A stretch of DNA of 32,637 bases from a virus. How positions within the stretch are numbered: position 1 is the stretch's first letter; the number at the start of each line of letters is the position of its first letter. The stretch lies in UHGV virus genome UHGV-1394707. One strand, given 5' to 3'. The position numbers were made by a program, and so were the translations under genes. Of the stretch, positions 10,613-32,637 are shown piece by piece. Under the pieces are notes generated by a model. The model ran no database searches, had not been told where the DNA came from, and saw nothing but the letters and a program-made list of their open reading frames with translations.

Positions 10613-11035
10613 ATGCAGCATGATTTATTTGAACACGATCCGGCAATTCGCCAGTTAATCGGACATATTGATAACATCCCGGCCCCGGAACTGGAATCAC
10701 GCTGGCCCCGTTCGGTGGTTGATCTGATTGATGTTCTGGAAAACGAACTGAAACGCCAGAACGTCAGCAATCCCCGTGAGCTTGCCCGTAAACAGGCCGT
10801 TGCCCTGTCCTGTTTTCTGGGTGGACGGCAGTTTTACATCCCCTGCGGCGATACGATCCTGACCGCGTTACGCGACGATTTGCTTTACTGCCAGTTCAAT
10901 GGTCGTAACATGGAAGAACTGCGTCGCCAGTATCGCCTGTCCCAGCCGCAGATCTACCAGATTATTGCCAGCCAGAGAAAGCTGCATACACGACGTCATC
11001 AGCCTGATCTGTTCTCACCTGAAAGCCAGAAATAA
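10613..11035 (+). CDS. C: C, late transcription activator (Mor/C family)
   Basis: 140 aa, same length as Mu C; paralogous to the Mor ORF (shared ..FNGRN.. core); RBS GGGGGAAAA. Confidence 0.85.
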   Translation: MQHDLFEHDPAIRQLIGHIDNIPAPELESRWPRSVVDLIDVLENELKRQNVSNPRELARKQAVALSCFLGGRQFYIPCGDTILTALRDDLLYCQFNGRNMEELRRQYRLSQPQIYQIIASQRKLHTRRHQPDLFSPESQK

Positions 11036-11056
11036 CCGGCATCCTGCCGGTTATTT
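11030..11056. terminator. Perfect 12-3-12 palindrome overlapping the C stop codon; candidate middle-transcript terminator
   Basis: AAATAACCGGCA-TCC-TGCCGGTTATTT, then TTATTTCC on the + strand; symmetric, so could act in both directions. Confidence 0.5.
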
Positions 11057-11126
11057 CCTGTCACCATAATCCCGCACCTGCCATCTGATTTTTTAGACTG
11101 CCATCAGAGCATTTTTTCAGGGAAGC
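11057..11126 (+). promoter_or_regulatory. Candidate C-dependent late promoter upstream of lys
   Basis: Intergenic; CATAAT-CCCGCACCT (~11065-11079) lies 56 bp upstream of the lys ATG; the same CCCGCA core recurs upstream of two other late genes. Confidence 0.5.
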
Positions 11127-16742: not shown

Positions 16743-18042
16743 TCTGGCGTATGCCGCACGCCTCCCGCCAAAGGAGGCTGTCGCGTATTTCCGCGCCAAA
16801 GGCTACAACATCACCTGGAACTGGTACGAACAACTGGCAGACGCGCACGCCCGCGCCTTTACCGTTGCCAAAGCCACCCGGATGGATGTCCTGACCACAA
16901 TCCGTGAGGAAGTGGAGCGGGCTGTCAGTGAAGGCATCACCCGTGAGGAATTTACCCGCACACTGGCCCCCCGGCTGCAAAAACTCGGATGGTGGGGAAA
17001 ACAAATCATCGTGGATGCAGACGGAAACGCGAAGGTAATCGAGCTGGGCAGTCCGCGTCGTCTGGCAACCATTTATAACGTCAATACCCGTACGGCGTAT
17101 GGGGCAGGACGTTATGCGCAGATGATGAATACCGCCGATTTGTACCCGTACTGGCAGTACGTTGCCGTTATGGATGGCAGAACACGCCCGGAACATGCGC
17201 GGCTGCACAATATGGTTTTCCGGTATGACGACATTTTCTGGCAGACGCATTACCCGCCCAATGGCTGGAACTGCCGCTGTCGCGTCCGGGCGCTGTCTGC
17301 GGCCCGCATGAAAGAACTGGGGCTACAGGTCAGTTATGGTGCGTCATTCATGAATACCCGCGAAGTGGATGCCGGTACGGATGAAAGCACCGGAGAGATT
17401 TTCCGCACATCGTCAACCACGTTTGACAACGGTCGGGTAAAAATGACGCCGGATGTAGGCTGGTCATATAACCCTGGTTCGGCGGCATTTGGTACGGATC
17501 AGGCACTGATTCGAAAACTGGTGGAAATTCGCGACGCGCAGTTGCGTGAGCAGGTTGTTCAGACGCTGAATAACAGCCGGGAGCGTCAGCTTGCTTTTTC
17601 CCTCTGGCTTAAACGCCTAGCAGGATCACGTCAGACCGGTCATGAAATCCGGGCACTGGGTTTTATGACGGAATCGGTAGCTGAAGCCGTACATCAGCGC
17701 ACCGGGAATATGCCAGCCCGTCTGCTTGTGATGAACGGGAAAAGTCTGGCGACCACTGCTGATGCCGCCCTGAAACCGGAGGATTTACAGCATCTGCCGT
17801 CGCTGATGGCAAAACCACAGGCAGTATTGTGGGACAGGGAGAACCACCAGTTGCTGTATGTTGTGGCAACCCGTGACGGCATGGCCCGGATTGTGGTCAG
17901 AACATCACAGACAGTCGGCAGGCAGAATGACCGTGCGGATGTGCTGGTCAGTATCAGCCGCGTATCTGCACAGTCGCTTGAAACCGCGATTGCTGACAGG
18001 ATGATTGACGTACTGGAGGGGCATGTGGAGGTGAATAAGTGA
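16723..18042 (+). CDS. F: Head morphogenesis protein (Mu F-like)
   Basis: About 440 aa; follows the portal as Mu F does; start ambiguous between 16687 and ATG 16723. Confidence 0.75.
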   Translation: MPQQTIDLAYAARLPPKEAVAYFRAKGYNITWNWYEQLADAHARAFTVAKATRMDVLTTIREEVERAVSEGITREEFTRTLAPRLQKLGWWGKQIIVDADGNAKVIELGSPRRLATIYNVNTRTAYGAGRYAQMMNTADLYPYWQYVAVMDGRTRPEHARLHNMVFRYDDIFWQTHYPPNGWNCRCRVRALSAARMKELGLQVSYGASFMNTREVDAGTDESTGEIFRTSSTTFDNGRVKMTPDVGWSYNPGSAAFGTDQALIRKLVEIRDAQLREQVVQTLNNSRERQLAFSLWLKRLAGSRQTGHEIRALGFMTESVAEAVHQRTGNMPARLLVMNGKSLATTADAALKPEDLQHLPSLMAKPQAVLWDRENHQLLYVVATRDGMARIVVRTSQTVGRQNDRADVLVSISRVSAQSLETAIADRMIDVLEGHVEVNK

Positions 18043-18509
18043 GTCTTGATATGAACGTTGCCGTGGATGTGCGACGTATTCAGCTTGCACTGGATGAACT
18101 GGGAACCGTTACACGTGACCGCGCCATTCCCCGTGTGATGGCTGCGGCGCTGCTGTCATCCACGGAACAGGCATTTGAACGGCAGGCAGACCCGGATACA
18201 GGGAAAGGCTGGGAAGCGTGGAGCGATTCGTGGCAGGCATGGCGTCAGGATCATGGTTTTGTTCCGGGCAGTATCCTTACCCTGCATGGCGATCTGGCAC
18301 GCAGCATTACCACCGATTATGGACAGGATTATGCCCTGATTGGTTCGCCAAAAATTTATGCTGCCATTCATCAGTGGGGCGGTACACCCGATATGGCACC
18401 CCGCCCGGCAGGCGTTCCTGCGCGTCCTTATATGGGGCTGGATAAGACCGGGGAACAGGAAATTTTTGATGCCATCAGAAAACGCGTCAGCGCCGCTCTG
18501 AGGCAATAA
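18039..18509 (+). CDS. Virion morphogenesis protein, positional equivalent of Mu G (gp31)
   Basis: 156 aa; GTG start 6 nt after GGAGGTG and overlapping the F stop (GTGA). Confidence 0.7.
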   Translation: MSLDMNVAVDVRRIQLALDELGTVTRDRAIPRVMAAALLSSTEQAFERQADPDTGKGWEAWSDSWQAWRQDHGFVPGSILTLHGDLARSITTDYGQDYALIGSPKIYAAIHQWGGTPDMAPRPAGVPARPYMGLDKTGEQEIFDAIRKRVSAALRQ

Positions 18510-18640
18510 ACTGAATCAGACATGAAATCAGCCGCACAGATTTTTTAAAACGCGCCACGGGATTTTTAAACCGGTATTTAACGGTGTATGAATCCCGTTT
18601 TATCTTCCTTCCACTTTCTTTCTCCATTACTCAAATAGCA
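18510..18640. other. Candidate strong gyrase site (central non-coding region between G and I)
   Basis: 196-bp gap about 18.2 kb from the left end, i.e. near the centre of a ~37 kb Mu genome, where the Mu strong gyrase site maps (between G and I). Confidence 0.4.
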
Positions 18641-18705
18641 TAACCCCAGATTTTCCCGCACCTCCCGCAAACTGACTGCTCACAAACCATGATGAGCAGC
18701 AGGAC
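18641..18705 (+). promoter_or_regulatory. Candidate C-dependent late promoter upstream of I
   Basis: CATAACCCCAGATTTT-CCCGCACCT-CCCGCAAA (~18639-18671); CCCGCA core 51 bp upstream of the I ATG. Confidence 0.5.
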
Positions 18706-19791
18706 ATGAAAAAACACGCGATTGGCATTGCCGCACTGAGTGCGCTGTCCATTGACGATGACGGCTGGTGCCAGCTATTGCCTGCCGGTCATTTCAGTGC
18801 CCGTGATGGTCGTCCGTTTGATGTGACAGGCGGTCAGGGGTGGTTCATCGACGGTGAGATTGCCGGGCGTCTGGTTGAAGGCGTTCGCGCGCTCAACCAA
18901 GACGTGCTGATTGATTACGAGCATAACCAGCTACGTAAGGACAAAGGATTACCCCCGGAACAACTCGTCGCGGCTGGCTGGTTTAACGCCGATGAAATGC
19001 AGTGGCGTGAAGGTGAAGGGTTATTTATCCACCCACGCTGGACGGCGGCGGCCCAGCAGCGCATCGATGACGGCGAATTTGGTTATCTCTCTGCGGTTTT
19101 TCCGTATGACACCGCCACCGGTGCAGTGCTGCAAATCCGCCTTGCTGCGCTGACCAATGACCCCGGTGCCACCGGCATGAAAAAGCTGACCGCACTGGCG
19201 GCAGACCTTCCCGACATCCTTCAACAGGAGAACAAACCCATGAATGAAACGCTGCGCAAGCTGCTTGCGCGTCTTGGGGTGACTGTCCCCGAAAATGCAG
19301 ACATCACCGATGAACAGGCAACAGCGGCACTGACCGCGCTGGACACGCTGGAAATTAATGCCGGGAAAGTGGCGGCGTTGTCTGCCGAACTGGAAAAGGC
19401 ACAGAAAGCCGCCGTTGACCTGACGAAATACGTCCCGGTGGAAAGCTACAACGCCCTGCGTGATGAACTGGCACAGGCGACTGCACAAAGCGCCACAGCC
19501 AGCCTGAGCGCCGTTCTGGACAAGGCGGAACAGGAAGGCCGCATTTTCAAAAGCGAACGTACCTATCTGGAACAGCTTGGCGGTCAGATTGGCGTGGCGG
19601 CACTGTCGGCACAGCTTGAGAAAAAACAGCCTATCGCTGCGTTATCTGCCATGCAGACCACCACAGCGAAAATCCCGTCGCAAGAAAAAACGGCGGTGGC
19701 GGTGCTGTCTGCTGATGAACAGGCAGCAGTGAAGGCGCTCGGCATTACAGAGGCTGAGTATCTGAAAATGAAACAGGAACAAGAAAAATGA
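18706..19791 (+). CDS. I: Head maturation protease / scaffold (Mu I-like)
   Basis: 361 aa, same length as Mu I; directly precedes the major head gene; Ala/Gln-rich helical C-terminal half consistent with a scaffold domain. Confidence 0.8.
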   Translation: MKKHAIGIAALSALSIDDDGWCQLLPAGHFSARDGRPFDVTGGQGWFIDGEIAGRLVEGVRALNQDVLIDYEHNQLRKDKGLPPEQLVAAGWFNADEMQWREGEGLFIHPRWTAAAQQRIDDGEFGYLSAVFPYDTATGAVLQIRLAALTNDPGATGMKKLTALAADLPDILQQENKPMNETLRKLLARLGVTVPENADITDEQATAALTALDTLEINAGKVAALSAELEKAQKAAVDLTKYVPVESYNALRDELAQATAQSATASLSAVLDKAEQEGRIFKSERTYLEQLGGQIGVAALSAQLEKKQPIAALSAMQTTTAKIPSQEKTAVAVLSADEQAAVKALGITEAEYLKMKQEQEK

Positions 19792-26857: not shown

Positions 26858-28345
26858 ATGTTTGAAGATGCTTTAAATGCCGTTAATGCTGTCCGGGATA
26901 AAACCGGTGGAGGCAGGAAAACAACCGGCAAAGGCACGTTCCGTAACGTGCCGTTTCTCGTCATCGAGGAGCAAAAACAGGCTGGCGGACGTCGCCTGGT
27001 TAAACGCGAGTACCCGTTACGTGATACCGGCGGCGTCAATGACCTGGGGAAAAAGCTTCGCTCCCGTACATTCAGCGCCTGCATTCTGAACAGCAACGCA
27101 GAAACAGCCAGAGATGAAGCGGGTGCGCTGATGGATGCTCTTGATGCTCCGGGTAGCGGTGAGCTGGTACATCCTGATTTCGGCACTGTGGACGTCATGG
27201 TGGATTCATGGGAATGCCGCACTAAAGCGGATGAACTGAATTATTACGCGTTCACCGTTACCGTTTATCCGTCGTTGCAGGATACAGCCCCGGACGCAGA
27301 GACAGACACCAGTGCAGCCGTACCGGCACAGGCCGTTGCTGTAACCGGTTCTCTGGGAGATACGCTGTCCTCTGTCTGGCAGACTGTAAAAGATGGCACT
27401 GCGGCGGCAACCGCCGTGATGGAAGCTGTAACCGGTGTCATCGATGATATCAGTGATGCGGTGGACAATCTGGGGGTTACGCAGACTGTCAGCGGTCTGA
27501 TGGGATCGCTTTCTGCGATGAAAGGCTCTGTGACCAGCCTGATTAACCAGCCTGCCATGCTGGCCTCCTCGCTGATGGGGGCGCTGTCCGGCGTTTCATC
27601 GTTATGCGATACCCGGACAGCATTTTCCACATGGAACCGTCTGGCGCAGCGATTCGAACGTCGCCATGCCGCCACCGCAGGCAGACAGGGGACAATCACA
27701 ACCTCGTACAACAGTCCGGTTGCAGAAAAAAATATTGCCACACTGAACTACGTCATGCTGGCAGCGGCGCAGACATACCGGGCAGAAGCTGCCAGCCAGG
27801 CACTGACTGCGGCACTGGATTTCAGTCGCCGGATGGATAATGCCGCCCGTGCACCTGTACTGGATGCCCCGTCCACCACAACCGGCACAGCCAGCGGGGC
27901 CAGCAGCACATCTGCTACCGTCACACAGGGACAGTTACAGTTAACTGCCATAACCCCGGACGGCGGCTTTTCACAGGTATCCTTTTCAGACAGTGGTACA
28001 GCCACGCCCCCGGTATTTGAAAGTGTGTCCGATATCGGAAAAACAGCCGCCATGCTGGGGGCTGCACTGGATACCGTCATTCTGACGGCATCTGAGCAGG
28101 GCTTTTCGACAGACAGCGTTCAGCTTACGCAACTGCGTCTGCTGGTTGTTGCCGACCTGGAAAAACGCGGGCTGCAACTGGCGGGCAGTGAAATGCACCG
28201 CCTGCCGGAGACGATGCCTGCAATGGTGGCCCTGTACCGTTACACAGGAAACAGCCGGAACTGGCAACGGCTGGCCCGCAGGAACGGTATCAGCAACCCG
28301 TTGTTTGTTCCCGGTGGCGTCAGTATTGAGGTGATTAATGAGTAA
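26858..28345 (+). CDS. N: DNA circularization protein N-like tail/baseplate protein
   Basis: 495 aa immediately after the tape measure gene, where Mu N sits. Confidence 0.7.
28260..28337 (+). promoter_or_regulatory. Candidate C-dependent late promoter embedded in the 3' end of the N-like gene
   Basis: GGCTGG-CCCGCA-GGAA (~28271-28283); CCCGCA core 59 bp upstream of the next gene's ATG, matching the spacing upstream of lys and I. Confidence 0.35.
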
Positions 28346-32108: not shown

Positions 32109-32637
32109 TGTTTTATATTGATAACGACAGCGGCGTAACCGTCATGCCGCCCGTATCCGCCCAGCGTAGTGCTATCGTTCGCTGGTTTTCAGAAGGTGAC
32201 GGGAATAATGTTATCACATGGCCCGGCATGGACTGGTTTAATATTGTGCAGGCGGAGTTATTAAACACGCTGGAAGAAGCCGGTATTCAACCGGATAAAA
32301 CAAAATTAAACCAGCTTGCACTGTCCATTAAAGCCATCATGAACAAGAACGCGCTTCTGATAAAAAATAACCTCAGCGAAATTAAAACTGCCGGGGCATC
32401 AGCACAGCGTACAGCACGTGAAAATCTGGATATCTATGATGCCAGCCTGAACAAAAAAGGACTCGTTCAGCTAACCAGTGCCACTGACAGCCCCAGTGAA
32501 ACGCTGGCAGCCACCGCAAAAGCGGTGAAAATTGCGATGGATAATGCCAATGCCCGTCTGGCAAAAGAGCGGAACGGAGCAGATATTCCCAATAAGCCGC
32601 TGTTTATCCAAAACCTCGGTTTACAGGAAACGGTAAA
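32108..32637 (+). CDS. S: Tail fibre protein, N-terminal part (runs off the window end)
   Basis: ATG at 32108 overlapping the upstream stop (TAATG); open to the window end (>176 codons, MFYIDNDSGVTVMPPVSAQRSAIVRWFSEG..); sits where Mu S does. Absent from the ORF track only because no stop falls in the window. Confidence 0.6.
   Translation, partial: MFYIDNDSGVTVMPPVSAQRSAIVRWFSEGDGNNVITWPGMDWFNIVQAELLNTLEEAGIQPDKTKLNQLALSIKAIMNKNALLIKNNLSEIKTAGASAQRTARENLDIYDASLNKKGLVQLTSATDSPSETLAATAKAVKIAMDNANARLAKERNGADIPNKPLFIQNLGLQETV

Follow-up and report, generated by a model that had tools for sequence, protein, structure and literature searches.

The locus between the late genes G and I of this Mu-like genome raises the question of what its non-coding stretch contains, and whether a strong gyrase site (SGS) of the kind known from phage Mu lies there together with a late promoter, as had been suggested in a preliminary description of the DNA. 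In the window, by which we mean the whole 32,637-nt stretch of DNA that was analyzed, the G-I gap occupies 18510-18705 and is exactly 196 bp long, bounded by the stop of the G ORF at 18509 and the start of the I ORF at 18706. The upstream gene (18039..18509, + strand) encodes a 156-aa virion morphogenesis/neck protein homologous to Mu gp31/G (Pfam PF05069 Phage_tail_S, E = 1.6e-42), and the downstream gene (18706..19791, + strand), which is the first of the PI operon, encodes a 361-aa head maturation protease/scaffold (Pfam PF10123 Mu-like_Pro, E = 2.3e-98). Both the ORF ends and the Pfam identities of G and I agree with the 196-bp gap given previously. The GC content of the gap is 43.9%, compared with 52.8% for the whole window, and an Rfam search of positions 18300-18900 returned no match at E <= 1.

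By alignment, the window represents a Mu-type prophage (Muvirus) of E. coli and the left junction of that prophage, because it is collinear with Mu from position 348 onward and carries E. coli sequence in positions 1-347. Mu coordinate 1, i.e., the phage left end, aligned to window position 348, and the flank in 1-347 was matched in 5,407 of the 5,426 E. coli genomes of the collection. Over its first 25 kb the window runs collinear with both Mu and D108, at an identity of about 98%, and identity to Mu, D108, Mu_3F6, and SfMu is 96-98% across most of the window. The 600 bases around the gap matched 13 phage records at 98.8-99.7% identity, among them Mu, D108, Mu_3F6, SfMu, PhiR68_1, and several Yersinia Mu-like phages, and the gap itself is identical to that of Mu at 191 of its 196 positions (97.4%). 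From the phage left end it is 18,163 bp to the start of the gap and 18,183 bp to the position homologous to the Mu gyrase cut, in keeping with the distance of about 18.2 kb stated earlier. The last base of the window corresponds to Mu coordinate 31987, and the right end of the prophage falls outside the window, so that the centrality of the site rests on the length of its relatives: extrapolating from the approximately 4.73 kb of Mu that follow coordinate 31987 gives an estimated prophage of about 37.0 kb, with the cut at about 49% of it. Central placement of the SGS is needed in Mu for optimal replication and for the pairing of ends within the prophage domain (PMC10052514, PMC3820752).

In two Mu records of GenBank, the corresponding G-I gap is annotated with a gyrase cut, a terminator, the late promoter PI, and a ribosome-binding site, followed by gene I. 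With a local offset of +650, the gyrase cut of Mu (17879/17880) maps to 18529/18530 of the window, the terminator predicted by TransTermHP (17908-17953; AF083977) maps to 18558-18603, and the late promoter PI (17977-18043, for which the record cites PMID 2522923) maps to 18627-18693. Five positions within 18480-18730 distinguish the window from Mu, namely 18512, 18520, 18524, 18611, and 18627. On the strength of this homology we consider it very probable that the G-I gap holds an overlapping gyrase site, terminator hairpin, and promoter PI, all applying as they do in Mu. These features are already known and are textbook Mu biology; we infer that the hairpin functions as a terminator and that the functions described for Mu carry over to this prophage.

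The proposal of a strong gyrase site between G and I is borne out by homology to the experimentally characterized Mu site and by the GenBank cut annotation in the same gap. Alignment with the Mu site, which had been put forward as a check of that proposal, was done with the 133-bp fragment of the Mu SGS that served in gyrase gel shifts and supercoiling assays (PMC6379681 supplement), and its equivalent in the window, 18462..18594, is identical at 129 of 133 positions without a gap. The fragment matches GenBank Mu at 132/133 positions and the window matches GenBank Mu at 130/133 over the same span; one of the four mismatches between fragment and window is thus a difference between the fragment and GenBank Mu. 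Because the fragment maps to 18462-18594, the SGS begins inside the 3′ end of G and outside the coordinates first given for it, which hold for the part of the site in the gap and fail in confining it there, the left arm starting from about 18462 within G. The predicted gyrase cleavage site is at 18529..18534, with a top-strand cut between C18529 and A18530 taken from the Mu annotation at +650; a standard 4-bp stagger is assumed for the bottom-strand cut and for the AGCC overhang (18530-18533). Judged by its identity to Mu from 18525 to 18610, a stretch in which the 4-bp cleavage core and all of the right arm lie, this prophage would be expected to be cleaved by gyrase at 18529/18530.

The right arm of the site (18534..18606) is identical to that of Mu and is made up of phased A/T tracts, comprising T6A4 at 18541-18550, T5A3 at 18563-18570, T3A2 at 18577-18581, and A/T-rich steps near 18591 and 18601. 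The tracts are spaced by about 10.5-11 bp and lie at about +17, +38, +50, +62, and +72 from the cut. In a Fourier scan, the A/T periodicity of the right arm at 10.5-11 bp ranked in the top 0.1-2% of the window, depending on the parameters, and was below the window maximum; this periodicity is supportive of the predicted gyrase site without deciding for it. A crude score against the published 133-bp gyrase consensus ranked the site 1905th among 65,010 by strong/weak pattern and 540th when exact matches were counted, and is uninformative here because that consensus is 69% GC. With the published gyrase position weight matrix (Sutormin 2019, table DS10), Mu has a score of 14.3. Previous work on Mu showed preferential gyrase cleavage and processive supercoiling at the SGS (PMC6379681), and deletion of the SGS revealed a requirement for it in timely replicative transposition and end synapsis (PMC10052514, PMC3820752). 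In Mu lacking the SGS, the delay after induction is reported as about 100 min. The Mu site's right arm is reported to be essential, wrapping the C-terminal domain (CTD) of GyrA and presenting the T-segment (PMC10052514, PMC11626157, PMC13284261), and the left arm is reported as dispensable (PMC10052514, PMC13284261). At window position 18531 (Mu 17881), the oligonucleotide of PMC6379681 has a C, and both GenBank Mu and the window have a G. This position falls inside the 4-bp cleavage stagger. The C of the oligonucleotide might be one of the nu up-mutations carried by Pato's plasmids.

The site thus shares with the Mu SGS the same G-I locus and an identical cleavage core and right arm, is estimated to be similarly central, and differs from it by T18512, A18520, and G18524. 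All three of these differences from wild-type Mu lie on the left side, at -18, -10, and -6 from the cut, and all three bases are present in the viable phage D108. The G-I region of D108 agrees with the window at every base between about 18450 and 18626, these left-side variants included, and differs from it at two promoter positions, 18627 and 18654; our literature search found no characterization of D108's own SGS. Three of the five differences from Mu therefore cluster 6-18 bp left of the cut, which could be taken to mean that the gap is an ordinary operon boundary, a terminator followed by a promoter, whose gyrase site has decayed through substitutions next to the cleavage site. We regard this as very improbable: the same bases are carried by D108, a transposable phage that is viable, the essential right arm and the 4-bp core are those of Mu, and the left arm, where the substitutions fall, is the one reported to be dispensable (PMC10052514, PMC13284261). 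In addition, left-side positions vary freely in the Mu clade and the right arm is nearly invariant, since in a set of 13 distinct Mu-clade sequences variation was seen at 6 of the 20 positions immediately left of the cut, compared with 1 of the 67 right-arm positions (Fisher p = 4.6e-4). The bases changed at -6, -10, and -18 are nevertheless inside the approximately 35-bp G-segment region, and their substitution could in principle alter the efficiency of cleavage.

More distant relatives were collected by a search with protein I, which yielded 42 loci, including prophages of Kluyvera, Erwinia, Apirhabdus, Edwardsiella, and uncultured Enterobacteriaceae (MGYG) as well as IMG/VR contigs, the I proteins of these named groups being 50-77% identical. 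Wherever the stop codon of G could be located, the gap to I measured 196-254 bp; it could not be located in the Edwardsiella locus (L010/L043). Three phased TTTAAAC tracts, free of indels between them, were present in almost every divergent lineage, and their flanks had diverged. The tract consensus across lineages is TTTAAACGC, then TTTAAAC about 21 bp on, and then TTTAAACG 11-12 bp further. In loci L006-L047 the tracts lie about 130-210 bp upstream of gene I and align to window positions 18540-18585. From their sequence and spacing, the phased TTTAAAC tracts may mark candidate SGS right arms in these divergent prophages. Most heterologous sites reportedly fail to replace the Mu SGS (PMC10052514). 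The cross-lineage alignment gives a compact picture of natural variation that agrees with the published genetics, in that the left side is free and the phasing of the right arm is fixed.

The same alignment bears on whether the gap encodes a small protein instead. Small CDSs are annotated here in two related records, D108 (the "31.5" ORF, + strand) and Mu_3F6 (a 46-aa ORF on the minus strand), and the 46-aa minus-strand ORF does exist in the window at 18487-18627. However, Mu and D108 lack this ORF, whose ATG depends on the window-specific T18627, no canonical start in the + strand frame would yield 20 aa or more, and no ORF of the gap is conserved across lineages, the conserved columns fitting DNA-level motifs and not a reading frame. 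A protein-coding gap is accordingly scarcely credible to us. The small ORFs of D108 and Mu_3F6 were rejected as genes because they are unconserved even within the Mu clade, and the "hypothetical protein" at 18487-18627 probably represents an artefact of annotation on top of the SGS.

An inverted repeat in the gap had also been pointed out, and it was found where ACGGGATT (18557-18564) pairs with AATCCCGT (18591-18598), the spacer being 26 nt and not 27 nt as first described. Since perfect inverted repeats of at least 8 bp with a loop of at most 40 nt occurred in 6.6% of dinucleotide shuffles of the gap, the 8-bp repeat by itself is weak evidence. The full hairpin at 18557-18598, with a 9-bp outer stem (18557-18565/18590-18598) and a 4-bp inner stem (18570-18573/18582-18585), folds at -19.8 kcal/mol (z = -2.8) and was matched by 2 of 200 shuffles. 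Its stem is interrupted and it is followed by a short U-tract (UUUAUCUU). On the basis of the RNA fold and of the TransTermHP entry in the Mu record AF083977, 18557..18607 (+ strand), with TTTATCTTC as the tail, is a predicted intrinsic terminator of the lys-G late operon, and the hairpin with its U-rich tail most likely ends the lys-G late transcript in this model. A simple terminator scan of the gap did not report the hairpin, because of the loop limit of the scan, and a literature search found no experimentally mapped terminator between G and I. The position of the Mu-clade hairpin was not conserved in the divergent Mu-like prophages, several of which have other GC-rich hairpins nearby with T-runs after them, and we claim no covariation support for the terminator for this reason.

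The gyrase cut at 18529/30 lies 28 bp upstream of the inverted repeat, and the repeat falls inside the right arm of the SGS. This location inside a functionally essential arm, together with the fact that the terminator function is a prediction, lends some appeal to the reading of ACGGGATT/AATCCCGT as a DNA-level element, a cruciform or a protein-binding palindrome that aids gyrase recognition, rather than as an RNA terminator. That reading is nevertheless quite unlikely, because divergent lineages keep the A/T tracts and not the position of the repeat, several having other GC-rich hairpins with T-runs after them in its stead, gyrase wraps duplex DNA around its CTD (PMC11626157) in a manner incompatible with cruciform extrusion, and a T-rich tail comes after the hairpin, as it would in a terminator. 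Since the position of the hairpin is unconserved while the phased A/T tracts persist, the inverted repeat is best read, from these comparisons, as a terminator-like hairpin lying over the right arm, and as neither the cleavage site nor a determinant of gyrase action.

The late promoter expected in the gap is present at 18627..18693 (+ strand), where the window is identical at 66 of 67 positions to the PI annotated in Mu as "late promoter, PMID 2522923." Promoters of this class have a -10 hexamer without a -35 element, and the activator C binds a 16-bp imperfect dyad centered at -43.5 with the consensus TTAT-N5-6-ATAA (PMC2582627, PMC12867686). The window encodes the activator as gene C (10613..11035, + strand), a late transcription activator acting at PI that belongs to the Mor family (Pfam PF08765, E = 8e-33) and is the positional homologue of Mu gp21/C. 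When the four annotated Mu late promoters were set side by side, CATAAyCCC at feature positions 13-21 was common to all, as was a -10-like hexamer at positions 42-47, which reads TAGACT in Plys, CAAACT in PI, TATCCT in PP, and TAAGAT in Pmom; the window copies of Plys (11053-11119), PI, and PP (27937-28003) retain both shared elements. In the PI of the window, the C-binding element lies at about 18629-18644, the conserved CATAACCCC at 18639-18647, a TCCCGCA direct repeat at 18654-18669 in the spacer, and the -10 hexamer CAAACT at 18668-18673. The CATAAyCCC element at 18639-18647 is the right half of the C-binding site, and its half-site ATAAC is in register with those of the other three late promoters, the left half-site being poor, as it is in Mu PI. 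A sigma-70 scan of the gap found no -35/-10 promoter. The window resembles Mu PI, Plys, PP, and Pmom in the CATAAyCCC half-site, in a -10 element in the same register, and in lacking a -35 element. The one base by which it departs from Mu PI is a T (G in Mu) at 18627, where the C-footprint region has its outer edge (about -53). Both the -10 hexamer of PI and the C-box CATAAC are likewise kept in the divergent lineages (I 50-77% identical). The 10-bp match between lys and I, TCCCGCACCT, was already noted in PMC4461284, and the PI fragment used in vitro in that study covers the PI sequence of the window. Judged from the positions of ATAA (18640-18643) and of the -10 hexamer (18668-18673), which point to the same place, PI of this prophage is expected to start at about 18680. 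The start of PI in Mu is said to have been mapped with S1 by Margolin, Rao, and Howe in 1989.

The preliminary description had taken CCCGCA as the promoter motif, and this did not hold up. The gap contains two copies, at 18655 and 18664, which form the TCCCGCA direct repeat, but with 25 copies on the window's + strand the motif is not promoter-specific, and it does not belong to the elements common to the late promoters. Its place at PI is the spacer, where it also overlaps the -10 hexamer. Across the whole window CCCGCA is strand-biased, with 25 copies on the + strand and 4 on the minus strand; this asymmetry is probably due to the codon usage of genes that are uniformly on the + strand, rather than to a regulatory motif.

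Between the -10 hexamer and the start codon of I, the RNA can fold into a further stem-loop at 18672..18702 (+ strand; CUG.CUGCUCACA ... UG.UGAGCAGCAG), which covers the Shine-Dalgarno region. It starts 2-3 nt past the -10 hexamer of PI and ends 3 nt ahead of the I start codon, and its predicted energy is -14.7 kcal/mol (z = -4.7), a value reached in 0 of 200 shuffles. An RNA beginning at 18680 is unable to form it (-1.5 kcal/mol); because the left arm of the stem overlaps the predicted transcription start, the stem-loop would be possible only on read-through RNA. In other Mu-like lineages a stem occupies the equivalent place and shows compensatory changes (ATGGCC/GGCCAT, ATGACCT/AGGTCAT, and ATGGTCCG/CGGACCAT), with double changes in 3 of the 7 consensus pairs, and in these lineages the AUG itself is paired. 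A speculative reading, to which we give a minor chance, is that the stem-loop acts as a conserved translational insulator, which would bury the Shine-Dalgarno sequence of I on lys-G read-through RNA and leave PI transcripts to be translated freely. We did not find such an insulator described in the literature consulted.

Taken as in Mu, for which others have established the steps that involve gyrase, synapsis, and C, these elements would act as follows. Host gyrase would bind with its cleavage center at 18529/30, and the right arm would wrap one GyrA CTD and present the T-segment; the wrapped arm would in turn allow fast and processive negative supercoiling from the midpoint of the genome. A plectoneme extruded from the SGS would align both arms of the prophage and join attL and attR for transpososome assembly, bringing the Mu ends together because the SGS would sit at about the midpoint of the estimated ~37-kb genome, and end synapsis would permit the prompt start of replicative transposition after induction. 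The SGS would also help to keep the prophage a separate chromosomal domain. On the RNA, the hairpin inside the right arm would terminate the lys-G transcript. Late in infection C would activate PI, 100-150 bp downstream of the gyrase cut, with binding of a C dimer around -43.5 switching on this sigma-70 promoter without a -35 element and thereby expression of the head genes I, Z, and T.

Among sequences that recruit host gyrase to organize the DNA of a mobile element, the Mu SGS is the reference case, and it is the standard substrate in structural and single-molecule work on gyrase. The strong gyrase sites of pSC101 and pBR322 and the Topo-Seq motif are elements of the type to which the site described here would belong, with a cleavage core between arms that have an A/T-G/C periodicity of about 10.75 bp and wrap the GyrA CTDs (PMC6379681). 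They show no sequence homology to it, and the plasmid sites were unable to replace the Mu SGS in Mu replication (PMC10052514). Going by the alignments, this prophage appears to carry an intact SGS allele of the D108 type. The result is of modest value for annotation, and the SGS, the terminator, and PI are absent from most prophage annotations.

Two further observations concern the ends of the prophage. At the right, the window ends (32616-32637) about 20 bp inside the invertible G segment, which has its left boundary at Mu 31966, and the tail-fiber variable region, gin, mom, and the right end all lie beyond its last base. At the left, the immunity/left-end region at 348-1890 is unlike that of D108 and Mu_3F6, whose matches begin at about 1891, and Mu matches it piecemeal, whereas the same region is 99% identical to prophages of E. 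coli N1286 and SE11; it looks like a third immunity type on an otherwise Mu/D108-like backbone.
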